A DNA stretch of 64,000 nucleotides from Kiloniellales bacterium (GTDB lineage: Bacteria > Pseudomonadota > Alphaproteobacteria > Kiloniellales > JAKSDN01): NCBI GenBank assembly GCA_041617155.1, contig JBFJPL010000007.1:107-64106 (forward strand), read 5' to 3'. How positions within the stretch are numbered: the first letter of the stretch is position 1; every line of letters begins with the position of its first letter. Below the pieces are notes generated by a model. It was not told where the DNA came from. It worked only from the letters and a program-made list of their open reading frames with translations, and did not search any database. Made by a program: the position numbers and the translations under genes. Below, in pieces: positions 43,975 to 58,760 of the stretch.

Positions 43975-45651
<1,677 letters not shown>

Positions 45652-47399: not shown

Positions 47400-47768
47400 A
47401 TGCCCAAGTCGGTGCTGATCGTCGACGACGAACCCAATATCGTGCTGTCGCTCGAAGTCTTGATGAAGCGGGCGGGATTCGAGGTTCGGGTGGCGCGGGA
47501 CGGCGAGGCTGCGCTCCAAGCGCTCAAGGCCGAGATCCCCGACCTGGTGTTGCTCGACGTGATGATGCCCAAGCGCGATGGCTACGATGTTTGCCAGATG
47601 ATACGCAGCAACGACGCCTGGAAGGACGTCCGGATCATCATGTTGACCGCCAGGGGCCGCGAGGTCGAGCGCGAAAAGGGCATAGCGCTCGGCGCCGACG
47701 ACTACGTTACAAAGCCCTTTTCGACTCGTGATCTGCTCGAACAGGTGCGTAAGCTGTTTCCCGACTAG
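47400..47768 (+). CDS. Single-domain response regulator (REC only)
   Basis: VDDE, LLDVMMP (phospho-Asp), LTA, KPF; GGAGGAG RBS. Confidence 0.93.
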   Translation: MPKSVLIVDDEPNIVLSLEVLMKRAGFEVRVARDGEAALQALKAEIPDLVLLDVMMPKRDGYDVCQMIRSNDAWKDVRIIMLTARGREVEREKGIALGADDYVTKPFSTRDLLEQVRKLFPD

Positions 47769-47799
47769 GCGCCCGCCCGGCTACGCGTAACGAGGTGCC

Positions 47800-49914
47800 A
47801 TGTCTCCTCGCCTCCTTTTGATCCTGGCCTTCGGCGCCGTCGGCACGACCGGCGCGCTGGCCATTCTGGTCGCGGTCTGGCTGATCCTGCATGCCGCCGA
47901 AGTCGGATTGGCCGAAGCGGGCTATGCGGCGCTGTTTTTCGGCGGCGCGGCCCTGCTGGCCTTCTGCGGCATCCTGGCCAGCGCCTGGGCAGCGGTCGAG
48001 CTCCGTTTATGGCGCCCCATGATCCGGCTCGCCGCGCGTCTTCATACGGTGGTCCACGCCACCGGGGAGGAAGAGGAGAGCGCGGCGATAGCGGTCGAAA
48101 ACCTTGGCCCCCTGACCGATGCCGTGCGGCAGCTGCTCGGCGAGTTGGCCGACGCACGCCAGGAAAAGGCGCAGGCCATGGCCAGCGCCCGCGAACGCAG
48201 CGAGGAACAGAAAAGCCGGCTAGAGGCGATCCTGCGCGACCTCAGCGAAGGCGTCCTGGTTTGCAACCTCAGCCACCAAATCCTCTTATACAATCAGGCG
48301 GCGTTGCGCATCCTGGAAACCCCCGAGGGACTCGGCCTCGGCCGCTCGCTGTTCCAGATTCTGACCAAGGCGCCGATCCTGCACAGCCTCGAACGGTTGC
48401 AAAGCTGGTTTGCCGACGGTAGACCCGGCGAAGACGGTCGGCACACGGCCGCTTTCGTCGGCACGACGACGGACGCCAGGCTGTTGCTGCACGGCCGCAT
48501 GACTCTGGTGCTGGATCGCGACCGTAATCCGGCCAGCTACGTCCTGGTCCTGACCGAGATCAGCCGCGAGCTGACGGCGCTGAGCGAACGCGACGCCCTG
48601 TTGTACCGGGCGACCGAGGGTCTGCGCGCGCCGCTGGCCAATCTGCGCGCCGCCGCCGAGACGCTCGACGCCAGTCCGGACCTGGAGGACGAAAAGCGTC
48701 AGGCCTTGGAACGGGTCATCCTGAGCGAATCCATCGCCCTAACCGAGAAGCACGAGGGTTTGGCGGAGGAGTATCGCAACTTGGTGGCCGGGCCCTGGTC
48801 GATGGACGATCTCTATGCTCCTGACCTGCTGAACTTCGTGTGCCGGCACGTGAAGGCTAAGGAGGGCTTGAAGGTCACGCTGGTCGGCCGGCCGGTGTGG
48901 CTTCGCGGCGACAGCCACGCCCTGATGCTGGTGCTCGAGTTTCTGATCGGCCACGTCGCGAAACGAGTAGAGGTCGCGGACTTCGATCTGGAAGCCTGGC
49001 ACGGCGACCGCCACTGCTACATAGAACTACGTTGGAAGGGCGAGGCTATTGCCTGGCGCGAGCTCGACGCCTGGCTGGAGAAAACGCTGCCGGGCGGCGT
49101 CGGTACGCGCACGCTGCGCGAGGTGCTGGAACGGCACGGCAGCGAGCCCTGGAGCCGACAGCAGGACGAAGAGGCGGTGCTGCGCATTCCGCTGCCGGCC
49201 GCCCCGCAACCCGACGCCGCCGAGGCCAGCGAGCCGCTGCCGCCGCGCCCGGAGTTCTACGACTTCGATCTGGTGCACCCGCCGCAAGCAGGCGGCGCCC
49301 TGGGCCAGCTGCCGTTGTCCGATCTGGCTTACGTGGTGTTCGACACCGAGACCACGGGCCTGCAGCCCTCCGCGGGCGACGAGATGGTCTCGATTGCCGG
49401 GGTGCGGGTCGTCAACCGGCGGATTCTTACTGGCGAAACCTTCGAGCGCCTGATCAATCCGCGTCGTCGCATCCCCGAAGCCTCGACCCGGTTTCACGGC
49501 ATCACCGACGACATGGTGAAGGACGCGCCGCCGGCACAGGTGGTTCTGCCGCAGTTCAAGAGCTTCGTCGCCGATTCGGTCCTGGTTGCCCACAACGCGG
49601 CTTTCGACATGAAGTTCCTGTACCTCAAGGAAGCGGAATGCGGCCTCTCTTTTGACAATCCCGTACTTGACACGCTGCTGTTGTCGGTCTGGCTGCACCC
49701 CGAGGAGCAGCACCACTCGCTGGACGCCATTGCCCAGCGCTTGGGGGTCGAAGTCGTCGGGCGCCACACCGCGATTGGCGACACCATGGTGACCGCCGCC
49801 GTCTTTCTGCGCATGCTGCGGTTGCTCGACTCCCGCGGCGTGATTACGCTTCAAGACGCCTTCGACGCCGCCGCGGAGATGGTCGAGCTCAGGCGCGCGC
49901 AGGCGTCGTTCTGA
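47800..49914 (+). CDS. Membrane-anchored PAS/pseudo-histidine-kinase fused to a DEDDh 3'-5' exonuclease
   Basis: 2 TM, PAS (LSEGVLVCN...LYNQAA), degenerate DHp (TEGLRAPLANLRAAAE), Exo motifs FDTETTG, AHNAAFD, HTAIGD. Confidence 0.85.
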   Translation: MSPRLLLILAFGAVGTTGALAILVAVWLILHAAEVGLAEAGYAALFFGGAALLAFCGILASAWAAVELRLWRPMIRLAARLHTVVHATGEEEESAAIAVENLGPLTDAVRQLLGELADARQEKAQAMASARERSEEQKSRLEAILRDLSEGVLVCNLSHQILLYNQAALRILETPEGLGLGRSLFQILTKAPILHSLERLQSWFADGRPGEDGRHTAAFVGTTTDARLLLHGRMTLVLDRDRNPASYVLVLTEISRELTALSERDALLYRATEGLRAPLANLRAAAETLDASPDLEDEKRQALERVILSESIALTEKHEGLAEEYRNLVAGPWSMDDLYAPDLLNFVCRHVKAKEGLKVTLVGRPVWLRGDSHALMLVLEFLIGHVAKRVEVADFDLEAWHGDRHCYIELRWKGEAIAWRELDAWLEKTLPGGVGTRTLREVLERHGSEPWSRQQDEEAVLRIPLPAAPQPDAAEASEPLPPRPEFYDFDLVHPPQAGGALGQLPLSDLAYVVFDTETTGLQPSAGDEMVSIAGVRVVNRRILTGETFERLINPRRRIPEASTRFHGITDDMVKDAPPAQVVLPQFKSFVADSVLVAHNAAFDMKFLYLKEAECGLSFDNPVLDTLLLSVWLHPEEQHHSLDAIAQRLGVEVVGRHTAIGDTMVTAAVFLRMLRLLDSRGVITLQDAFDAAAEMVELRRAQASF

Positions 49915-49957
49915 CTCCGCAATGCTAAGGCGGCCGGGCCGCAACCCCCGAGACAGC

Positions 49958-51418
49958 TCAAAAGACGTCGCCCGTGAAGTCGGCGTACACGCGCTTGCCC
50001 AGGGCATCAATCGCCTTTAAGGAATCGGTCAGAATGTCCTTTTCGCGCGCCGACAGCGCATTGGGGTGGACGTGGTTGCCGACCGGCCGCCTGGCCTTGA
50101 AATCGGCCAGTTGTTGGCGCAAGAGCAGTCCGGTGATGTGGGTCAAGGCGCCGCGCAGATAATCCGCCTCGTCATTGGCCAGGACACCCAGCTCGTGCAG
50201 CGCGGCAATTCGTTCAAGCGTCGAGGTCTTGGCAACGCCCTCGCGCAGCGCCAACAGCCGAAGCGGGGAAACCAGCGGCAGCGTGCCGCTGTGCTTCAAG
50301 TTGATCTTGCCCCTTTGCGCCGCGTCGTCCCTTTCGACCACGAAACGTCCAAACCAGCCGAGCGCTACGGCACCGGCGTGCATCTGCCGCACCAGCTCGC
50401 TCAGGAAGCCGGGGCTTGACTTGGCCATATCGGTGACCTGCCGGCGGAGCTCTTTGGCCATTGGGGTCGCGCCGTAGGTGCCCTGGAAATCGAAGAAGAT
50501 GTCAGCCAGTTGGACCGCGATCGCGCTGCGTTTGCGGCCCCACAGGCGGACCTGAGCGCGCCACTGGCTGCGGGTCTTGCGCCACACGGGGTTGGTTGCC
50601 ATGACATAACCGCGGCATAGGGGAAAGCCAACAGCGTCCAGGTCGCGGGTCAAGCGATCGGCCAGCTCGATGAAGAAACCATCGATCGCCGGATGATCCT
50701 TGTCGGGGTAGTCGTCGAGTATGAAGCCGTTGTCCTGGTCCGGGTAAAGGTAGTTTTCGCCTCGCCCCCCCGAGCCCATGATCAAAAGCGTGAACTCGAC
50801 CGGAGCGGTGCCCCAGCCCGATTCGGCCATGGCGGCCAGGTGGTTGTCCAGCAGGCGGGCGTGGATGTCCCAGTTGATATGGGTCAGGACCGCCTGAATT
50901 TCCGGACCCGGAACCCGGTCATCGAGCAGGCTCGCGGCCAGCTCGACTTGGGCGGCCTTGATCGCCCGGAGGCCGTCGAGGCTGTCGTCTTGGCTGATCA
51001 ATTCGATCTCGCGCAGCAGCGAGTCGCCCGCCACGGCCAGCGCGACCTGCAGCTCGATCATGCCGAGCGGCCGATAGCCGCGGTCGACCACCGGCATGTG
51101 CCGCCAGCCGAATCGGCGCATGCGGGCGATCGCATAGTAGAGGTAGTCGTCGTCAAACACGGCCTTGACCGGCGCCGTCATCACGTCGCCGACCGCCTCG
51201 CTGCCGACACAGCGCAGGGCGATGCGGCGGGTGACATCCTGCTCGGTCACGATCCCGGCTAGCCGGCCGTCGCCATCGACAATCAGAGCACTGGTGCGGC
51301 GCGCGGCGGCCATGGCCTCGAGCAAATCCGAGACGCTGGTCGTAGCCGTGACCACGACCGGCGACCGGCGCATATAGTCGGCGACCAGACGGGAAAAGAT
51401 CTTGGTCCGCGGCTGCAT
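49958..51418 (-). CDS. CBS-CBS-DUF294/DUF294_C putative nucleotidyltransferase
   Basis: CBS pair, MGSGGRGE...PDQDN (GS..DxD NTase motif), CRGYVMATNPVW, IFFD, INLK. Confidence 0.88.
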   Translation of the reverse strand: MQPRTKIFSRLVADYMRRSPVVVTATTSVSDLLEAMAAARRTSALIVDGDGRLAGIVTEQDVTRRIALRCVGSEAVGDVMTAPVKAVFDDDYLYYAIARMRRFGWRHMPVVDRGYRPLGMIELQVALAVAGDSLLREIELISQDDSLDGLRAIKAAQVELAASLLDDRVPGPEIQAVLTHINWDIHARLLDNHLAAMAESGWGTAPVEFTLLIMGSGGRGENYLYPDQDNGFILDDYPDKDHPAIDGFFIELADRLTRDLDAVGFPLCRGYVMATNPVWRKTRSQWRAQVRLWGRKRSAIAVQLADIFFDFQGTYGATPMAKELRRQVTDMAKSSPGFLSELVRQMHAGAVALGWFGRFVVERDDAAQRGKINLKHSGTLPLVSPLRLLALREGVAKTSTLERIAALHELGVLANDEADYLRGALTHITGLLLRQQLADFKARRPVGNHVHPNALSAREKDILTDSLKAIDALGKRVYADFTGDVF

Positions 51419-51432
51419 GGACGCCCGTCGCG

Positions 51433-54189
51433 CTATTCCGCGACCCGGGCGCTCAAGGCTCCGGTGGCCGGAATGGTGAAGGAAAACTTCGCGCCATGAC
51501 CGGGCGCGCTTTCGACCCAGATGCGTCCGCCGAAGAACTCGACGATCTGGCGCGATATCGCCAAGCCTAGCCCGGTGCCGCCGGGCCGATCGGTCAGGGC
51601 CTCGTTGGCCTGTTGGAACTTCTCAAAAATCATCCTGCGCTTTTCCGCCGCCACGCCCGGACCGTTGTCGGCAACGCTGACATAAAGGCCCTCGTCGCGC
51701 GCCGCGGCGGACACGACCACAAGGCCCTGGGTCTGATGGCAGAACTTCACCGCGTTGGACAACAGGTTGAGAATGACCTGCATCAAACGGTCGCGGTCGA
51801 CGAGGACCTTCGGCAGGCGTTCGTCGAGTTTGAGCTCGAGCTTGATCGCGCGCTCGGCGAACAGACTGCCGGTCGCCGCCAAGGCCTCCCTGATCACGCC
51901 TTCGGGGTCAACCTCCTCCATCCGCCAGTCCATGCGGCCGGCTTCCATTTTCGCCAGGTCCAGGATCTGGTTGATCAGGCGTGTCAGGCGCTCGCTCTCC
52001 TTGACGATGACGGTCAGGAACCGTTGCCGTTCGGCCATTTCGATCTCCGGATTGTCGAACAGGATCTCGCTGAAGGAGCGGATCGAGGTCAGCGGCGTGC
52101 GCAGCTCGTGGCTGACGGTGGAAAGGAAATCATCCTTCAGGCGGTCCAGCTCCTTGAGCCGCTCGTTGGCGGCGCGCAGTTGGGCGGTGGTCGCTTCCAG
52201 CTCGCGCGACTTCTGTTCCAGGCCATGGCTGTATTCGATCACCTGCGAGGTTTCCTCCAATATTTCCATGACCTCGTCGATGCCCAACATCTCGCCCTTG
52301 GCGACCGACGCCACCATGACCCGCGCGGAAGCCGCGCCGATCGCGCCGGCCAGAAGCCGCTCGGCGAAGTTCACCAGATCGGCATCGGCCTCGGGCAGCT
52401 TGGCCAGGTTGAGGCCCCGCGCGCGGGCATAGCCGCCGAGCGCCCGTTCGGCGCGATCGCGTCCGACAAATCGCACGAGCAGCGCACGCAGATCCGAGAC
52501 CGTGGCCGAGCCGCGCCAGAAACGCGACCCACCGCCCGGGACGCCGGAATGCTTGAACACGTCCACGAACAGCGCGCCCTGGATTCGATCGATCGCGCTC
52601 TGCCGGCCGCCCAGGGAAAAGCCGATGAATCCGCCGATGTTGGCCAGCATGCTCCAAAACATGGCGTGGGTCAGACTGTCCATGCCGCGGAGCCCGAATA
52701 GCGCCTGCGGTTTGAGCAGCTCGATTGCGAGCGGCCCGGACTCGATAAAGCTGATAGGCAGCCAGCCCGAGCGCGCGAACGACGGCAAAAGCAAGGTATA
52801 GGCCCAGATGGCAAACCCCATGCCGAGCCCGGCCAGGGCGCCGCCGCGTGTGCCGCCCTTCCAAAAAATCCCGCCGATGATGGCCGGCGCGAACTGGGCG
52901 GCGGCGGCGAATGACACCAGGCCGATCGTGACCAAGGCGTCGGACTCGCCGGCCAGGCGGAAATAGCCATAGCCCAACAGCAGAATGATCACGATGCTGC
53001 CGCGACGAATCAGCAGCAGCAAACCGGTCAGGTCGCCACGCTCGGTCAGCCTGAGCCAACTGAGCCGCAGCAGTCCCGGCATGACCAGGTCGTTGCTGAC
53101 CATGGTGCTCAGGGCGATCGCGGCGACAATCACCATACCGGTCGCCGCCGACAGCCCGCCGATGAAGACGAACAGCGCCAGAAGCTCCTGCTGTTCGGCC
53201 ATCGGCAGGGTCAGCACGAAGGTGTCGGCGTCGACCACGCCCTTTGGAAAGGCCAGCAGACCGCCGATGGCGATCGGCAGGACGAAGACGTTGATCGCGA
53301 GCAGATAGAGCGGGAAAAGCCAGACCGCCTTGTGCAAGTGCGCCTCGTCCACGTTCTCGACCACGGTCATGTGAAATTGGCGGGGTAGGCAGATGATCGC
53401 CGCCATGGACAGGAACGTCAGGGTCATCCATTGGCCATAGCTGCTGCCGCCGCTCAGGGTCAACAGCTTGACGATTTCCGGCTCCGCGCGCGCCGCCGCG
53501 AAAAGGTCGCCGAACCCGTTGTAGAGGCCAAAGGTCACGAAGATGCCGACGGCCAGGAAGGCCGCCAGCTTGACCACCGATTCGAAGGCGATGGCGGCGA
53601 CCATGCCCTCGTGGTGTTCGCTGGCATCGATATGGCGGGTGCCGAACAGGATGGCGAAAGCGGCCATCACCAGCGCGATCAGAAATGCGGTGTCGGCCAG
53701 GACCGGGACATGCTCGGAGACGGGCGGCGTGGCCACCTCGGGATACTGCAGCAGGACCTTGAAGCTGGTCGATACCGCTTTTAGCTGCAGTGAGATGTAG
53801 GGCATGATGCCGACCACCGCGATGACAGTTACCAGAACGCTTAGGCCCGTACTCTTGCCGTAGCGCGAGGAGATGAAGTCGGCGATCGAGGTGATACGGT
53901 GCGCCTTGCTGATGCGAATGATCTTTCGCAGCACGAACCACCAGACCACGAAGGTCAATGTTGGCCCGAGGTAGATCGGCAGAAAGTCGATGCCGCTCGA
54001 CGCCGCGCGTCCGACGCTGCCGTAGAAGGTCCAGGAGGTGCAATAGACGGCAATCGACAGGGTATAGATGTAGGGATTGGCGACCAGGCTTTGGCCGGCA
54101 TCGGCGCGCTTGTCCACGCTGTAGGCGATCGCGAACAGCAGGCAGAGGTAGGCCAGCGAGGTCAGCAGTATGGCCCAGCCGCTCAGCAT
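51433..54189 (-). CDS. CrbS-like sodium:solute symporter-STAC-histidine kinase (no PAS, no REC)
   Basis: SSS domain (VYCTSWTFYGSVG, SIADFISSRYGKS, LPRQFH), STAC (LAGAIGAASARVM), H-box SHELRTPLT, N/G boxes (NLLSNAVKF, DNGPG, GTGLGL). Confidence 0.92.
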   Translation of the reverse strand: MLSGWAILLTSLAYLCLLFAIAYSVDKRADAGQSLVANPYIYTLSIAVYCTSWTFYGSVGRAASSGIDFLPIYLGPTLTFVVWWFVLRKIIRISKAHRITSIADFISSRYGKSTGLSVLVTVIAVVGIMPYISLQLKAVSTSFKVLLQYPEVATPPVSEHVPVLADTAFLIALVMAAFAILFGTRHIDASEHHEGMVAAIAFESVVKLAAFLAVGIFVTFGLYNGFGDLFAAARAEPEIVKLLTLSGGSSYGQWMTLTFLSMAAIICLPRQFHMTVVENVDEAHLHKAVWLFPLYLLAINVFVLPIAIGGLLAFPKGVVDADTFVLTLPMAEQQELLALFVFIGGLSAATGMVIVAAIALSTMVSNDLVMPGLLRLSWLRLTERGDLTGLLLLIRRGSIVIILLLGYGYFRLAGESDALVTIGLVSFAAAAQFAPAIIGGIFWKGGTRGGALAGLGMGFAIWAYTLLLPSFARSGWLPISFIESGPLAIELLKPQALFGLRGMDSLTHAMFWSMLANIGGFIGFSLGGRQSAIDRIQGALFVDVFKHSGVPGGGSRFWRGSATVSDLRALLVRFVGRDRAERALGGYARARGLNLAKLPEADADLVNFAERLLAGAIGAASARVMVASVAKGEMLGIDEVMEILEETSQVIEYSHGLEQKSRELEATTAQLRAANERLKELDRLKDDFLSTVSHELRTPLTSIRSFSEILFDNPEIEMAERQRFLTVIVKESERLTRLINQILDLAKMEAGRMDWRMEEVDPEGVIREALAATGSLFAERAIKLELKLDERLPKVLVDRDRLMQVILNLLSNAVKFCHQTQGLVVVSAAARDEGLYVSVADNGPGVAAEKRRMIFEKFQQANEALTDRPGGTGLGLAISRQIVEFFGGRIWVESAPGHGAKFSFTIPATGALSARVAE

Positions 54190-54191
54190 GT

Positions 54192-54446
54192 TCAGCGGTT
54201 CCCGCGCGGCGGTTCGGGCGCCGGGGGCTCGCCGCTCTGGTCCGGTGACCGGGCCGCGGCGACCGCCTGTACCGCGACCAGGGCAATGATGCCGGCCCAG
54301 GCGCAGAACAGATAGACGTAGAGCAGCGGCACGCCGAACAGGAAGACCTCGGCGCTGAAGATCGACAGGAGCGGTGGGTTGAAGGCGAGAAACGCCACGA
54401 TGAACAGCGCGAACGCACGCTCTCCCACCAAACCGGGCCGGTTCAT
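54192..54446 (-). CDS. Small two-TM membrane protein (DUF3311-like SSS partner)
   Basis: FNPPLL...LFGVPLLYVYLFCAW; GGGAGG RBS; directly upstream of the SSS-kinase. Confidence 0.75.
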   Translation of the reverse strand: MNRPGLVGERAFALFIVAFLAFNPPLLSIFSAEVFLFGVPLLYVYLFCAWAGIIALVAVQAVAAARSPDQSGEPPAPEPPRGNR

Positions 54447-54515
54447 GCCATGCCTCCCGTCTGCCGAACCGCCATCATCGCGCACGATCGCCCGGACGGC
54501 AAAGCAGCCGTTTTT

Positions 54516-54893
54516 TCACTGCTCCTCGGCGCCCAGCAACTGGCGCGCCCGCGCGACGATCTCGCGGGTCGAGAAGGGCTTGGTCATATAGTCGTCGGCG
54601 CCCAGTTCCATCCCCTTGTGCCGGTCCAGCGCCCGCCCCTTCGCGGTCAGCATCATGATCTTGACGTCGCTCCACGCCGGGTTCTCGCGGATCTCGCGAC
54701 AAACGTCGTAGCCGTCGCGCCGGGGTAGCATTACGTCGAGCAGGACCAGATCGGGGACCCGGCTTTTCATGACTCTTATGGCCGCGTCTCCGTCGCGGGC
54801 GATCTGCACCAAAAAGCCCGCCTGCTTCATCAGGAAGCTGAGTGAATCGACGATGTTCGCCTCGTCTTCCACGACCAGAACTGAAAAGGCCAT
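54516..54893 (-). CDS. Single-domain response regulator (REC only), paralog of 47400..47768
   Basis: VEDE, LLDVMLP, LTAKG, KPFSTR. Confidence 0.93.
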   Translation of the reverse strand: MAFSVLVVEDEANIVDSLSFLMKQAGFLVQIARDGDAAIRVMKSRVPDLVLLDVMLPRRDGYDVCREIRENPAWSDVKIMMLTAKGRALDRHKGMELGADDYMTKPFSTREIVARARQLLGAEEQ

Positions 54894-54951
54894 ATCGGCA
54901 CCCCTTCCGCGGCTAATACCAAAGGTCATTGATCATGACCTTTGGTATTAA

Positions 54952-56514
54952 TCACCGTACGAGCGACGGGTAGGCCCGCTGCCGGCAATCATGCCGTTCA
55001 CAGAGCCGGCAATGCAGCCCGACAGGCATGGCGATTTTGGCATCGTCAAATGCCAGGCCGTCGGCGTAGACCAGCTTTCGGGCGAACGACACCTCGCAGC
55101 CGATGCAGATCGCATAGTGACTGTCCGGCGCGCCAAAACCGTCGCCCGGCTTGGCGATATGCCTGGCGATATTGAGATAGGTCGTACCATCGGGCAGTCG
55201 GGCAATCTGCCGGTCAATCCGCCCCGGGTTCATGAAGGTCGCATGCACGTTCCAGCGCGGGCAGGCCCCGCCGTAGCGCGGAATCCGCAAGCCGGAGCCG
55301 TTGAACCGCTTGGAGATATTGCCGGCGATATCGACCCGCATGAAGTGGAACGGCACGCCTTCGTCACCCGGTCGCTGCAAGGTGGTCAAGCGGTGGCAGA
55401 CCTGCTCGAAACTGGTCCCGAAACTCTGCGCTAACAGATCGATGTCGTGGCGTAGCTCTTCGGCAGCTGAGCGGAACGGCCGGTAAGGCATCAGCACGGC
55501 ACCGGCGAAGTAGCCCGCAAGCATCCGGCGGTACATCTTTCGGGCGCCGGGTGTCGAGAGCACTGCCTGCTCCATATGCCGTTCGATCAGCCCCGGCATC
55601 GAGATCAGCGCGACCTGCTGAGCAACCTGGAAAGCCACGCTCCCGGCTGGCAAGTTTTTCGAAACTCGCAGGCCGCGCTGCCCGGCATCGAACTCGTCAG
55701 CGCGCGCCGCACCATTGTCGCCGGCCCCGAACGTGACCGTCAGGCCGCAATGCTCGGCGAGCGCGGTCCACAGGGCCTCCGGCGTGTCCGAGCTCGTGGC
55801 ACCGATCTCCTGTCGAGCCCGCTCGGCGGCCACCTCGAACTCGGGAAAGTGGTTGTTGGCCCGGTGCACTGCATCGATGACTTCATCGCTCGGCGAGTCC
55901 GTGCCCCGCAGGCCACGCAAGCCGTCGCCGGTGATGAAATCGAACAGCTGGTTGACCAATTCGGTCAACTTTTCGCTTTCCTTCACCAGCACGCCGACGA
56001 ACTGCCTACGCCGGTCCGCGGCCAGATCGACGTTGTCGTGCAGAATCTCGGCAAAAGACCGGATCGAGGTCAGCAGAGTCAGGAGCTGATGGCTCGATTC
56101 GGAAAGATAGGGATCCTGGGCGAGATGCTCGCTCAGGCCACGGATATCCTCGCTCACATTCCGATAGCTCCGGTAGAGCGTCAAGATCGCCCGACACACG
56201 GCCGGCGCGGCCCCGACCAGTTCGTTCAACTCACTGTGCCTAAGCTTCAAATCGCCGAACAGCGGGTCGCTGAAGAGTTCCGTGATGTCGGCCAGCAGCC
56301 GCGCCTCCTCGTTGCCCGAGAAGGACTTGAGGTCGACCTGGAAGCGCTCCGACAGCTTCAGCAGAAGCGGCCGGTTGAGAGCCCGCTGGTTGTGCTCGAT
56401 CAGATTGAGATAACTCGGCGATATCCCCAGTTGCGTCGCCATGGCAACCTGGGTCAGCCCATGCTCGTTGCGCAAGCGGCGCACCTTATTGCCCAGCATC
56501 GCCTGCCGCGGCAT
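54952..56514 (-). CDS. ScfR/RamB/PrpR-family XRE transcriptional regulator with internal DHp-like insert
   Basis: XRE HTH (LGISPSYLNLIEHNQR), YFAGAVLMP, SFEQVCHRLTTLQRPG, RVDIAGNISKR, ACPRW, C-terminal CRLCERHDC. Confidence 0.9.
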   Translation of the reverse strand: MPRQAMLGNKVRRLRNEHGLTQVAMATQLGISPSYLNLIEHNQRALNRPLLLKLSERFQVDLKSFSGNEEARLLADITELFSDPLFGDLKLRHSELNELVGAAPAVCRAILTLYRSYRNVSEDIRGLSEHLAQDPYLSESSHQLLTLLTSIRSFAEILHDNVDLAADRRRQFVGVLVKESEKLTELVNQLFDFITGDGLRGLRGTDSPSDEVIDAVHRANNHFPEFEVAAERARQEIGATSSDTPEALWTALAEHCGLTVTFGAGDNGAARADEFDAGQRGLRVSKNLPAGSVAFQVAQQVALISMPGLIERHMEQAVLSTPGARKMYRRMLAGYFAGAVLMPYRPFRSAAEELRHDIDLLAQSFGTSFEQVCHRLTTLQRPGDEGVPFHFMRVDIAGNISKRFNGSGLRIPRYGGACPRWNVHATFMNPGRIDRQIARLPDGTTYLNIARHIAKPGDGFGAPDSHYAICIGCEVSFARKLVYADGLAFDDAKIAMPVGLHCRLCERHDCRQRAYPSLVR

Positions 56515-56535
56515 CGTTCGCCTCCCTAGGCAGTA

Positions 56536-56583
56536 TTTACTTGTTTACATGTTCTCGAATTTCGCTGTCGCAATATTTACAAA
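56536..56583. promoter_or_regulatory. 8-bp-phased TTTAC(A)-type repeats, candidate ScfR operator
   Basis: TTTACTTG, TTTACATG and TTTACAAA at 56536, 56544 and 56576 between the divergent regulator and transporter. Confidence 0.5.
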
Positions 56584-56625
56584 TTTCGTCCGATGGAACA
56601 ATGCGATATTGACCGGCACCGAAGA

Positions 56626-56641
56626 TTAACGAATAGTTAAC
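56626..56641. promoter_or_regulatory. Full CtrA-box match TTAA-N7-TTAAC
   Basis: TTAAcgaatagTTAAC upstream of the SSS transporter. Confidence 0.55.
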
Positions 56642-56771
56642 CTTAGGAGCTATGTAAGCCCTTGAAATTTATGTCGGCGCCCACTTGGACGCGCCGACGG
56701 GTCGAATCCGGTCCCGAGCCGTCAAGACCATCAAGAACAGGGTCGGGCCTACACGAAGGGGGACATCACCT

Positions 56772-58760
56772 ATGGAAGCCAAAGTTGTCTGGCTCTTTGT
56801 CTTCGTCGCGCTCTATTGGGCCTATTGCATCTTCTGGGGCATCAAGTCGGCGATGACGGCGAAGACCGCCTCTGATTACTTCATCGCCGGACGGCGTCTG
56901 TCGATCTGGGTCTTCATCCTGGCGGCGACGGCCACGTCGTTTTCCGGCTGGACCTTCATGGGCCATCCGGGCCTCGTCTACCGCGACGGGTTCCAATACG
57001 CCTATGCGTCGTTCTACACCATCACCATTCCCTTCACCGGCGTGATGTTCCTGAAGCGCCAGTGGATGCTGGGCAAGCGCTACGGCTACGTGACGCCGGG
57101 CGAGATGCTGGCGGACTACTTCCGGGGCGATGCGATCCGCATCCTGGTCGTGCTGGTGGCGTTGTTGTTCTCGATCCCGTATCTCGGCGTGCAGCTGGGC
57201 GCCTCGGGCTTCCTGTTCAACGTGCTGACCGACGGCCTGATTCACGAGGAAGTGGGCATGTGGGTGCTGTCGCTGGTGGTGCTGATCTATGTCGCCTCGG
57301 GCGGTCTTCGGGCGGTGGCCTACGTGGACACTGTGCAGTGCATCCTGCTGGCGGTCGGCATTATGATCACGGGCGTCATCGCGCTCGATCTGGTCGGCGG
57401 CTGGGGCGCCCTGAACGAGGGCTTCGCGGCGATCGGCCGCTCGAACCTGGGCAAGTGGGGCGTCACGGAAGATGGCTACAACGCCTATCTCGCGATTCCC
57501 GGCGTGATCCAGTTCACCGCGGGCCTGGGCAAGGAAACCCCGGTCGGCGGCTTGTGGACCGGCGTCATGTGTCTGACCTACATGTTCGCGCTCATGGGCA
57601 TCCAATCGGCGCCGGCCTTCTCGATGTGGGCGTTCGGCAACCAGAGCCCGAAGCCCTTCGCGCCGCAACAGGTCTGGGCCTCGTCGTTCTGCATCGGCTT
57701 TATCCTGTTCTTCTTCACCGCCTTCCAGGGCATGGGCGCCCATCTGTTGGGCGGCAACCCGGCCTTTAACGAAGCCGGGCTGGTGATCAACGAGGTACTG
57801 AACGGCCAGGAGATCGCAGGCAAGCCGGACTCGCTGGTGCCGCGCTACTTCAACCAGATCGCCGACTCCCTGCCGTGGCTGGTCGGCCTGTTGGCGGTTT
57901 GTGCCCTCGCGGCCATGCAGTCGACCGGCGCGGCCTACATGTCCACGGCCGGCGGCATGCTGACCCGCGACCTCTATAAGCGCTATCTGAATCCGACGGC
58001 CAGCCACACGACCCAAAAACTGTTCGGGCGTGCCGGCGTCGCCTTCATCGTGCTGTCGGCGCTCTTGGTCGCGACCTTCTCGAAGGATGCGCTTGTTCTG
58101 CTGGGCGGTTTGGCGGTCGCCTTCGGCTTCCAGATGTGGCCGGCTCTGGCGGCGATCTGCTGGTTTCCCTGGATCACCCGTCAGGGCGCGACCTGGGGTC
58201 TGGCGGCCGGCCTGATCGGGGTGATCTTCACCGAGACCTTCGGTCAGCAAATCGCTGGCGTGCTCGGTATCGACCTGCCTTGGGGCCGCTGGCCCTGGAC
58301 CATCCATTCGGCCGGCTGGGGCATAATCCTCAACCTCGCCGTTTGCATCCCGGTTTCGTACCTCACCCAGAACTCGGGGGATCTGGCTCACCGCATGAAG
58401 TATCATAACTTCCTGCGCGAGCATGCCAGCCTGTCGCCCAGCAAGCGCGGACTGGTCCCGATCGCCTGGGGTGTGACCCTGGCCTGGATGTTCTTCGGCA
58501 TCGGCCCGGGCGCGGTGATCGGCAACGACATCTTCGGCGCGCCGAACGCGGGCGTCGAGGGCTGGACCTTCGGCATTCCGTCGATCTGGGCCTGGCAGAT
58601 CCTGTTCTGGCTGCTGGGAACCGCGATGATGTGGTTCCTGGCCTACAAGATGGAGATGTCGACCGTGCCCGATAAGGAGGTCGAGGCTCTGGTCGAGGAT
58701 ATCGGCGACGTCGTTCAGACCCCGGCCGCCCAGGCCGGAGCCGGCGGCGCGGGTCGATAA
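56772..58760 (+). CDS. Sodium:solute symporter (SSS) family transporter with C-terminal extra membrane domain
   Basis: DYFIAGR, TSFSGWTFMGHPG, GGLRAVAYVD, ALAAMQST, LTRDLY; multi-TM; GAAGGGGG RBS. Confidence 0.92.
   Translation: MEAKVVWLFVFVALYWAYCIFWGIKSAMTAKTASDYFIAGRRLSIWVFILAATATSFSGWTFMGHPGLVYRDGFQYAYASFYTITIPFTGVMFLKRQWMLGKRYGYVTPGEMLADYFRGDAIRILVVLVALLFSIPYLGVQLGASGFLFNVLTDGLIHEEVGMWVLSLVVLIYVASGGLRAVAYVDTVQCILLAVGIMITGVIALDLVGGWGALNEGFAAIGRSNLGKWGVTEDGYNAYLAIPGVIQFTAGLGKETPVGGLWTGVMCLTYMFALMGIQSAPAFSMWAFGNQSPKPFAPQQVWASSFCIGFILFFFTAFQGMGAHLLGGNPAFNEAGLVINEVLNGQEIAGKPDSLVPRYFNQIADSLPWLVGLLAVCALAAMQSTGAAYMSTAGGMLTRDLYKRYLNPTASHTTQKLFGRAGVAFIVLSALLVATFSKDALVLLGGLAVAFGFQMWPALAAICWFPWITRQGATWGLAAGLIGVIFTETFGQQIAGVLGIDLPWGRWPWTIHSAGWGIILNLAVCIPVSYLTQNSGDLAHRMKYHNFLREHASLSPSKRGLVPIAWGVTLAWMFFGIGPGAVIGNDIFGAPNAGVEGWTFGIPSIWAWQILFWLLGTAMMWFLAYKMEMSTVPDKEVEALVEDIGDVVQTPAAQAGAGGAGR

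Follow-up and report, generated by a model that had tools for sequence, protein, structure and literature searches.

A gene cluster at positions 47400-58760 of the window, the whole 64,000-nucleotide stretch of Kiloniellales DNA analysed here, encodes an SLC5-like histidine kinase, two stand-alone receivers (REC1 and REC2) and two proteins, an ScfR-type transcription regulator and an exonuclease, which are not kinases themselves but contain modules similar to the DHp domain of the kinase. These proteins probably constitute a branched two-component pathway in which proteins with kinase-less DHp modules, and not DNA-binding response regulators, serve as outputs. No DNA-binding response regulator was found among the Pfam matches in 47400-58760, as the initial annotation of the window had stated. 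Domains were assigned with Pfam and NCBIfam. All seven genes of the initial annotation lie where it had placed them, and these searches recovered its domain calls with the exception of the membrane part of the kinase, which is supported by a match to the solved chain 10ed_A. The assembly of the window's genome is 95% complete and consists of 234 contigs, thus the absence of a gene from it is not proof of absence.

The region comprises two converging transcription units. On the minus strand, from 56514 down to 49958, the order of the genes is scfR, REC2, a small open reading frame (ORF) of 84 amino acids, the kinase gene and the CBS-DUF294 gene, with gaps of 22, 69, about 2 and 14 nucleotides between them. 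The plus-strand unit (47400 to 49914) consists of REC1 followed by the exonuclease gene, with 31 nucleotides between the two.

The ScfR/RamB-type regulator (520 amino acids; 54952..56514, minus strand) is composed of an HTH_XRE domain, a DHp insert, an M78/IrrE-like domain and the C-terminal ScfRs domain. (The Pfam matches were HTH_3 with E 2.4e-11, HisKA at residues 141-193, Peptidase_M78 with E 1.9e-15 and ScfRs with E 5.5e-58; the NCBIfam model RamB gave 401 bits, under its equivalog cut-off of 700.) The insert, residues 131-206 (55897..56124, minus strand), contains His142 and Thr146 and was recognized by HisKA with 34.2 bits against a Pfam cut-off of 26.9. When ScfR was aligned with Mycobacterium tuberculosis PrpR (6cyj; E 7e-78), residues 64-130 and 207-518 matched residues 18-83 and 96-406 of the PrpR chain. 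Residues 131-206 of ScfR take the place of 12 PrpR residues, which amounts to an insertion of approximately 64 residues. The DHp insert proposed in the initial annotation is thus supported both by a HisKA score above the cut-off and by being extra in comparison with PrpR. The insert also matched HK853 chains (E 2e-4), and in the AlphaFold2 model of ScfR, built from 53 sequences (mean predicted local distance difference test score, pLDDT, 79), it consists of two helices (135-160 and 166-195) and a short loop. Outside the insert ScfR is a normal member of its family. Its cysteines in the motif C502-X2-C505-X4-C510 as well as C418 were invariant in 53 of 53 sequences; they align to the cysteines described as ligands of the [4Fe-4S] cluster of PrpR (PMC6765138), and cluster binding is predicted also for ScfR. 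The M78-like domain comes after the insert, and no HATPase_c domain was found in ScfR by Pfam.

The best match to the ScfR DHp among the DHp domains of the window's genome was that of the kinase encoded at the same locus (E 2.6e-14; the next best match had E 5.3e-5). The two modules are identical at 33 of 61 positions (54%, E 2e-16). Comparison of the H-boxes, S-H142-Q-L-L-T146-L-L in ScfR and S-H-E-L-R-T-P-L in the kinase, shows that ScfR retains the His and the Thr at position H+4, while the acidic residue at H+1 is replaced by Gln and the Pro is lost.

Conservation of these features was followed in three samples. The first comprised 41 related genomes (G labels), from which 34 stretches were fetched (L labels) and all seven genes were mapped; tallies are given over 35 mapped stretches. 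The second consisted of 80 loci from named public records, taken with 6-kb flanks, and the third was an even set of 301 alphaproteobacterial genomes, in which the presence of an insert-type ScfR was scored by a proxy, a one-piece match running through the insert. Since the genomes are akin and hence not independent, the tallies describe distribution, do not serve as statistics, and overstate the number of independent observations. His was found at position 142 in 117 of 120 close homologues of ScfR, in 27 of the 29 fetched loci and in 73 of the 80 named-record loci. Among the 120 homologues 102 had Thr at H+4, whereas the H+1 residue was Glu in 67, Gln in 27, Arg in 25 and Lys in one. In the 80-locus set Thr at H+4 was present in 71 of the 73 loci with His and in two of the seven without it, and it was invariant in the 22 rows of an alignment (A1) of ScfRs that have a receiver gene or the kinase nearby. 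In HisKA kinases the acidic residue at H+1 is described as required for kinase activity (autophosphorylation), and Thr or Asn at H+4 for phosphatase activity (PMC3510030). Conservation of His and the H+4 Thr with a freely varying H+1 residue is the pattern expected of a DHp that has given up autophosphorylation and yet continues to act on a phosphorylated receiver. The conserved His142/Thr146 pair, as read from these alignments, suggests phosphoryl chemistry at the interface of ScfR and REC2.

Of the 120 best database matches to ScfR 115 carry a precomputed HisKA match. Their names are only 'short-chain fatty acyl-CoA regulator family' or 'DUF2083', thus the link of ScfR to signalling is invisible in the annotation. 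Some ScfRs deviate at the His position. In three named records of alphaproteobacterial metagenome-assembled genomes (MAGs; L124, L125 and L127) His and Thr were lost together, the former being Asn and the latter Ala, yet a receiver gene and the kinase gene are located directly downstream. In genome G015 Tyr replaces the His of ScfR, and scfR and the kinase gene are not linked. The two Tyr variants among the first 29 loci were unlinked from the kinase, or the kinase was not found; the idea that loss of His tracks loss of the kinase was not borne out by the 80 loci, where the kinase gene adjoins scfR in five of the seven His-less cases.

REC2 (137 amino acids, the start being possibly Met13; 54516..54929, minus strand) is encoded between scfR and the kinase gene, and REC1 (122 amino acids; 47400..47768, plus strand) is the first gene of the REC1-exonuclease pair. 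In agreement with the initial annotation, which described them as paralogous REC-only proteins, both were matched by Response_reg (E 1.6e-28 in REC2 and 9e-32 in REC1), and they share 75 of 120 residues (63%) in an alignment covering the full length of REC1. D22, E23, D65, T95 and K117 of REC2, which make up the full phospho-acceptor residue set, were invariant in 20 of 20 aligned ScfR-linked receivers. In the receiver tree one clade (support 100/97) contained nine of nine receivers encoded upstream of long exonucleases. Position 28 in helix 1 is Leu, His or Met in the exonuclease-linked receivers, and Asp or Glu in the ScfR-linked ones. Such a separate, well-supported clade of the exonuclease-side receivers fits the two branches at which the initial annotation had hinted. 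Covariation of REC position 28 with ScfR position 159 was also considered; the alignments show no consistent pattern, and no claim is made.

A complex of two ScfR DHp chains with REC2 was modelled along with three controls. The complex scored 0.70 and the best control 0.00 (of 80 solved complexes 58 attain the mark of the ScfR-REC2 model, of 110 mismatched pairs 2), the runs shared at least 95% of the contacts, and the pLDDT of the partner was at least 86. In the model residues 141-161, 175 and 179 of ScfR, including His142, contact helix 1 and residues 67, 96-97 and 117-122 of REC2. Helix 1 and the active-site loops of REC2 are placed on helix 1 of the ScfR DHp, which is the canonical arrangement of a kinase and its receiver. 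The model is in line with the path from REC to the ScfR DHp suggested in the initial annotation, but because the geometry is the textbook one, the pass may stem from resemblance to solved complexes such as HK853-RR468, and it speaks for likeness and not for binding. At the 16 positions that make contacts in the model, ScfR and its own kinase were identical in 258 of 368 comparisons (70%) over 23 pairs, against 357 of 1012 (35%) at the other DHp positions, a contrast of which part is generic H-box conservation of HisKA domains. In the window ScfR and the kinase agree at 15 of the 16 docking positions; the docking face of the exonuclease differs from that of the kinase at eight of the 16.

Twenty-nine of the 41 relatives had a one-piece ScfR match running through the insert, and three more a match in two pieces, the first of which covered the insert. 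A receiver gene is located between scfR and the kinase gene in 21 of the 35 mapped stretches. In G035 and G009 scfR-REC is found at one place and REC-kinase at another, and four kinase genes in the mapped stretches have a receiver gene upstream, with scfR not adjoining. Among the named-record loci the kinase gene was present within the 6-kb flanks of scfR in 71 of 80. Seven loci in which scfR is not directly followed by a receiver gene were inspected: in five the order was REC-kinase-scfR or scfR was convergent with REC-kinase, and the other two were cut at this point. In the class sample the kinases fell into separate groups, a short form with reading frames of about 900-1040 amino acids (40 genomes) and a long CrbS-like form of about 1100-1420 amino acids (22 genomes). 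Insert-type matches were obtained in 25 of the 301 genomes (about 8%). All 25 genomes hold the short kinase, 20 of them within 10 kb on the same contig; of the remaining 276 genomes 15 hold the short kinase, and 22 hold the long CrbS-like type alone. The neighbourhood survey thus found that the DHp-bearing ScfR, a receiver gene and the SLC5 kinase stay together in many genera, even though gene order changes.

Many loci are minimal and consist of scfR, REC, the small ORF and the kinase gene only (e.g. L023, L028-L031 and L036-L042), and ScfR is the sole protein with an output domain encoded there. In these loci the signal must end at ScfR, unless the true output is encoded elsewhere. The initial annotation had named a cognate DNA-binding regulator encoded elsewhere as a possible explanation of the output. 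None stood out in the window's genome as assembled (95% complete), where the closest full response regulator shares 48% identity with REC2 and has its own kinase-like gene beside it.

The exonuclease (704 amino acids; 47800..49914, plus strand) has two transmembrane (TM) segments, a PAS-like fold, a pseudo-DHp, a degenerate CA-like domain and a DEDDh 3'-5' exonuclease domain (RNase_T at residues 512-669, E 2.5e-40). D515, E517, D603, H656 and D661, the DEDDh catalytic set, were invariant in seven of seven aligned sequences. The PAS match was weak, 20.8 bits against a cut-off of 22.6. The pseudo-DHp is identical to the DHp of the kinase at 19 of 52 positions (37%, E 1e-5). In the exonuclease of the window the His position is occupied by Glu, and in eight aligned long exonucleases by Glu (seven) or Asp (one), thus this DHp cannot accept phosphate at that position. 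This rules against the phosphate transfer to the exonuclease that had been considered in the initial annotation. Residues 150-470 of an AlphaFold2 model (seven sequences, mean pLDDT 59.6, below 50 in the nuclease part) were used for structural comparison, and the remainder of the model was left aside. In this segment a PAS-like fold is accompanied by a helical hairpin at residues 254-326 and by an alpha/beta domain at 337-467, with block pLDDT values of 49-89, mostly above 64. Its best Foldseek matches were whole PAS-DHp-CA kinases (WalK, VicK, YF1 and HK853; E 6e-17 to 1e-8). No HATPase_c domain was found by Pfam, and neither a conserved N-box Asn nor a G1 motif was seen in the alignment of the exonucleases (A4). 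According to the model the exonuclease carries a full pseudo-kinase, DHp plus CA-like domain. The parts listed in the initial annotation are therefore present, with an intact nuclease and a weak PAS, but its pseudo-DHp is, by the model, part of a larger module.

Each of the nine long exonuclease genes that are complete follows directly on a receiver gene, and the tenth runs off the end of its stretch. In L022, L024 and L025, where the exonuclease match is restricted to the nuclease part, no receiver gene adjoins. In G004 and G008 (L046 and L045) the order REC-exonuclease-kinase forms an operon, and no insert-type ScfR was found in these two genomes.

These observations can be accommodated in the following scheme. 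The SLC5-like kinase, probably together with the small two-TM protein encoded upstream of it, would sense a transported solute and phosphorylate the stand-alone receivers. REC2 would dock on the DHp hairpin of ScfR, which is set between the DNA-binding part and the part that would serve acyl-CoA/[4Fe-4S] sensing, and would do so through the face of helix 1 that is also offered by the DHp of the kinase. Docking would set the activity of ScfR at the TTTAC boxes ahead of the SSS (sodium:solute symporter) gene and of ScfR's own operon, and one promoter could in this way integrate an outside signal, arriving through the kinase, with an inside signal, acyl-CoA. At the His142/Thr146 interface either reversible Asp-to-His transfer or dephosphorylation of REC2 might take place. 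On the other branch the nuclease activity of the membrane-bound exonuclease would be controlled by REC1, docked on its pseudo-kinase module in the manner of DivK on DivL. The CBS-DUF294 nucleotidyltransferase would be co-transcribed with the kinase.

That His142 actually becomes phosphorylated is possible, but we would sooner expect that it does not. More tentative still is a complete His-Asp-His phosphorelay ending on a transcription factor. In such a relay phosphate would pass from the kinase to REC2 and on to His142, phospho-His would set DNA binding jointly with acyl-CoA/[4Fe-4S] sensing, and the REC1 arm would switch the pseudo-kinase exonuclease, working with the DUF294 enzyme on a nucleic-acid 3' end. 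If true, the phosphorelay with its nuclease arm would represent a two-component system with a direct post-transcriptional arm.

Several observations weigh against a branched pathway with kinase-less DHp outputs, in addition to the kinship of the sampled genomes, the familiar geometry of the docking model and the generic share of the identity contrast. His is replaced in seven of the 80 loci (Asn in three, Tyr in three, Phe in one), and in five of these the kinase still adjoins, thus His chemistry is not indispensable everywhere. Absence of His was about as frequent where a receiver gene is directly downstream of scfR (4 of 52 loci) as where it is not (3 of 28). Insert-type ScfRs are present in G005 (97% complete) and G007 (86% complete), in which the SLC5 kinase was not found with the query used, and in G013 and G022 there is no receiver gene next to scfR. 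In G015 (L034, 13979-15860) a receiver gene of the REC1 type precedes a TM-PAS-RNase_T exonuclease of 495 amino acids without the pseudo-kinase part. Finally, the linkage could also stem from ScfR merely regulating the REC-kinase operon.

The last point is part of an explanation in which the ScfR DHp is a mere dimerization module recruited from the kinase, scfR clusters with the other genes because ScfR regulates the operon, and the receivers act on the exonuclease, the kinase or other partners. DHp domains are dimerization domains, PrpR-type regulators are described as functioning as oligomers (PMC6765138), and the loci that lack the His, the kinase (G005, G007) or the neighbouring receiver gene (G013, G022) are what a dimerizer would allow. 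On the other hand, a pure dimerizer need not retain His142 or, in nearly all the His-bearing loci, Thr146, nor is there a need for its docking face to stay 70% identical to that of the kinase when the remaining positions of the module, including the core, are at 35%. It would also leave unexplained that scfR of G035 and G009 is still accompanied by a receiver gene, the kinase and a receiver gene of its own being elsewhere, and that minimal loci encode no other output protein. We regard dimerization as the sole role of the insert as improbable.

The flow might also be reversed: the ScfR DHp could be a kinase-less phosphatase or phosphate sink for phosphorylated REC2, gated by acyl-CoA, and ScfR would then tune the kinase-REC-exonuclease pathway instead of being its output. 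The invariance of the H+4 Thr in the 22 rows of alignment A1 combined with the unconserved H+1 acid is what one would expect of such an enzyme, ScfR has no ATPase domain, and the modelled docking geometry is that of kinases in both reactions. In the minimal loci, however, there is no other output for a signal tuned in this way, and the roles of sink and output are not mutually exclusive. As a replacement for the output role this alternative seems quite improbable. A heterodimer of the ScfR and kinase DHps, which would tether the regulator to the membrane or allow the ATPase domain of the kinase to phosphorylate His142 without a receiver, would suit the 54% identity of the two modules and the rank of the kinase as best match in the genome, but it is highly improbable, as the identity is concentrated on the receiver-docking face and not at the remaining positions including the bundle core, and the receiver gene stays beside scfR where the kinase is elsewhere (G035, G009).

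The kinase (918 amino acids; 51433..54189, minus strand) has a HisKA domain at residues 685-751, with the DHp His at position 694, and HATPase_c at 798-909. PAS and REC domains were not found by Pfam, as originally annotated, and the DHp comes straight after the cytoplasmic linker. The SSS-type membrane domain assigned to it earlier gained support in part. Residues 1-684 gave no Pfam match, SSF included, even at E 10. Nevertheless, residues 7-473 aligned in a PDB sequence match to residues 10-452 of chain 10ed_A, a solved 'histidine kinase' (E 3.9e-68), which indicates that the transporter-like membrane domain is real where Pfam is silent. The STAC domain is putative; residues 474-684 had no match in Pfam or NCBIfam, and the match to 10ed_A stops at 473. 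The membrane part of the kinase had no second match in the window's genome.

The small ORF between REC2 and the kinase gene (84 amino acids; 54192..54446, minus strand; alternative GTG start at 54485) had been overlooked in the initial annotation. Two TM helices are predicted from its sequence, and its stop codon abuts the start codon of the kinase gene. It was detected by tblastn (E < 0.01) in 27 of the 29 fetched kinase-bearing stretches, always between the receiver gene and the kinase gene, and carries the conserved motif PPLLSIFS...FG(I/V)PLLYLYLF. A family search with this ORF gave none. Its position recalls that of cbrX, which is described as preceding cbrA (PMC6591292).

The kinase of the locus belongs with the SLC5-type 'transceptor' kinases. 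CrbS/CrbR of Vibrio and Pseudomonas, CbrA/CbrB of Pseudomonas and RpuS/RpuR of Sinorhizobium fredii likewise have kinases that join an SLC5 membrane domain to a HisKA/HATPase core, and the theme common to these SLC5/STAC kinases is the uptake and use of small carboxylates. In contrast to CrbS, the kinase of the locus has neither a PAS domain nor a fused receiver. It differs from all three also in the lack of an adjoining LuxR- or NtrC-type DNA-binding regulator, in place of which there are stand-alone receivers and DHp-bearing outputs. The CBS-nucleotidyltransferase gene at the locus echoes the CrbS/R regulon, in which the cNMP-CBS-nucleotidyltransferase gene pflu5625 is reported to be under CrbS/R control (PMC5715377). 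The place of this gene in the regulon bears out one element of the comparison with CrbS/CrbR made in the initial annotation.

ScfR shares the HTH_XRE, M78/IrrE-like and ScfRs domains and the C-X2-C-X4-C motif with a fourth Cys with the other members of the ScfR/IsaR family (PrpR and RamB of M. tuberculosis, RamB of Paracoccus denitrificans, PccR of Cereibacter sphaeroides). In this family, too, the regulator gene is divergent to a likely target gene and repeated boxes are found upstream; two-box sites have been described for RamB (PMC10370305). What sets the ScfR of the locus apart is the inserted DHp hairpin and the linkage of the gene to a kinase and a receiver. The Paracoccus RamB paper has one sentence on an additional member of the ScfR network, whose gene is clustered with a two-component system and which was not studied there (PMC10370305).

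The kinase-like modules have parallels in Caulobacter and Bacillus. DivL has Tyr at the His position, as do three of the ScfR variants. DivK, a receiver-only protein of Caulobacter, is described as acting by binding the DHp of the non-phosphorylatable kinase-like module of DivL (PMC12471899), and this pair illustrates how the exonuclease branch, and also ScfRs devoid of the His, might work. The differences are that here a nuclease or a transcription factor carries the kinase-like module, which does not steer another kinase, and that the His position of the exonuclease is occupied by Glu or Asp. Spo0B of Bacillus, which works with Spo0F, and ChpT of Caulobacter, the latter described as resembling a histidine kinase (PMC3433190), are kinase-less DHps with a conserved His, and the ScfR DHp would likewise take phosphate from a receiver Asp. 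Transfer of the phosphate to a second receiver is the sole function of Spo0B and ChpT, whereas the minimal loci encode one receiver. (The window has REC1 too, but many loci with a DHp-bearing ScfR have no REC1-type gene.) With a single receiver and a DHp located inside a transcription factor, the His would be the end point, unlike in Spo0B and ChpT.

In the literature searched we found no description of a DHp-bearing ScfR, of the pseudo-kinase exonuclease or of the whole circuit, although the 2015 classification of ScfRs or the published ScfR similarity network may already delineate the subclass. The module is a widespread and conserved, apparently undescribed variant of two-component signalling in marine Alphaproteobacteria. 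In the textbook view of such systems a kinase acts on a receiver that shares its polypeptide with the output domain. The pathway proposed here would follow a different output logic: the output proteins would carry a copy of the docking domain of the kinase, with a free receiver between the two. By acquiring a DHp module an unrelated transcription factor or enzyme could be turned into a two-component output. At one promoter the circuit would bring together acyl-CoA sensing and sensing by a transporter-like kinase, and it would provide the first regulatory handle on the long-unexplained pair of DUF294 nucleotidyltransferase and exonuclease genes of carboxylate-uptake loci. Cultured Thalassospira, Kiloniella and Novispirillum are among the carriers, which makes the system testable at the bench; the nearest named relatives of the window are MAGs of Kiloniellales or Rhodospirillales.

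The gene divergent from scfR encodes a transporter of the sodium:solute symporter family (56685..58760, plus strand; probable start Met30 at 56772; SSF, E 8e-32), as first annotated. None of the named transporter models of NCBIfam was matched above its cut-off. The transporter is 79-89% identical across the fetched loci, and its gene is divergent to scfR in 14 of them. It was considered as a close paralogue of the membrane domain of the kinase, but this was rejected, the two sharing 25% identity over 110 residues (E 0.006). The scfR-SSS intergenic region (56515..56771) contains TTTAC boxes on the same strand at 56536, 56544 and 56576, followed by a conserved TTGAC at 56601-56605. Three of the 22 TTTAC sites of the window thus fall within 45 bp in this region, and at least two boxes were found at conserved offsets in 10 of the 14 orthologous intergenic regions. 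The boxes are a candidate operator, at which ScfR probably acts, and the TTGAC sequence is a candidate -35 element of the SSS promoter.

The last gene of the minus-strand operon encodes a putative nucleotidyltransferase of the architecture CBS-CBS-DUF294-DUF294_C (486 amino acids; 49958..51418, minus strand). Pfam confirmed the initial assignment (CBS, E 5.2e-23; DUF294, E 9.6e-34; DUF294_C, E 1.1e-37). A CBS-DUF294 gene adjoins the kinase gene in 11 of the 35 mapped stretches. In L045 and L046 (G008 and G004) a second receiver gene is divergent from a gene for a cNMP-CBS-DUF294 protein of 621-635 amino acids, a Pseudomonas-like form.

Three further observations concern individual stretches. 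In L032 (G036), between 7108 and 15782, the genes are arranged on one strand in the order REC-kinase-scfR-REC-kinase, and the two receivers belong to different parts of the receiver tree. The locus of L081, whose record title names a Halopseudomonas aestusnigri MAG, gave a match resembling those of Kiloniella records (47% identity, same matched residues) and may be a mis-binned contig. A gene for an ABC-F type double-ATPase (window 43975-45651, minus strand) has copies of 77-83% identity in L021, L024, L025, L029 and L035, located close to genes for the kinase or the exonuclease; this recurrence probably reflects conserved synteny with a housekeeping gene.

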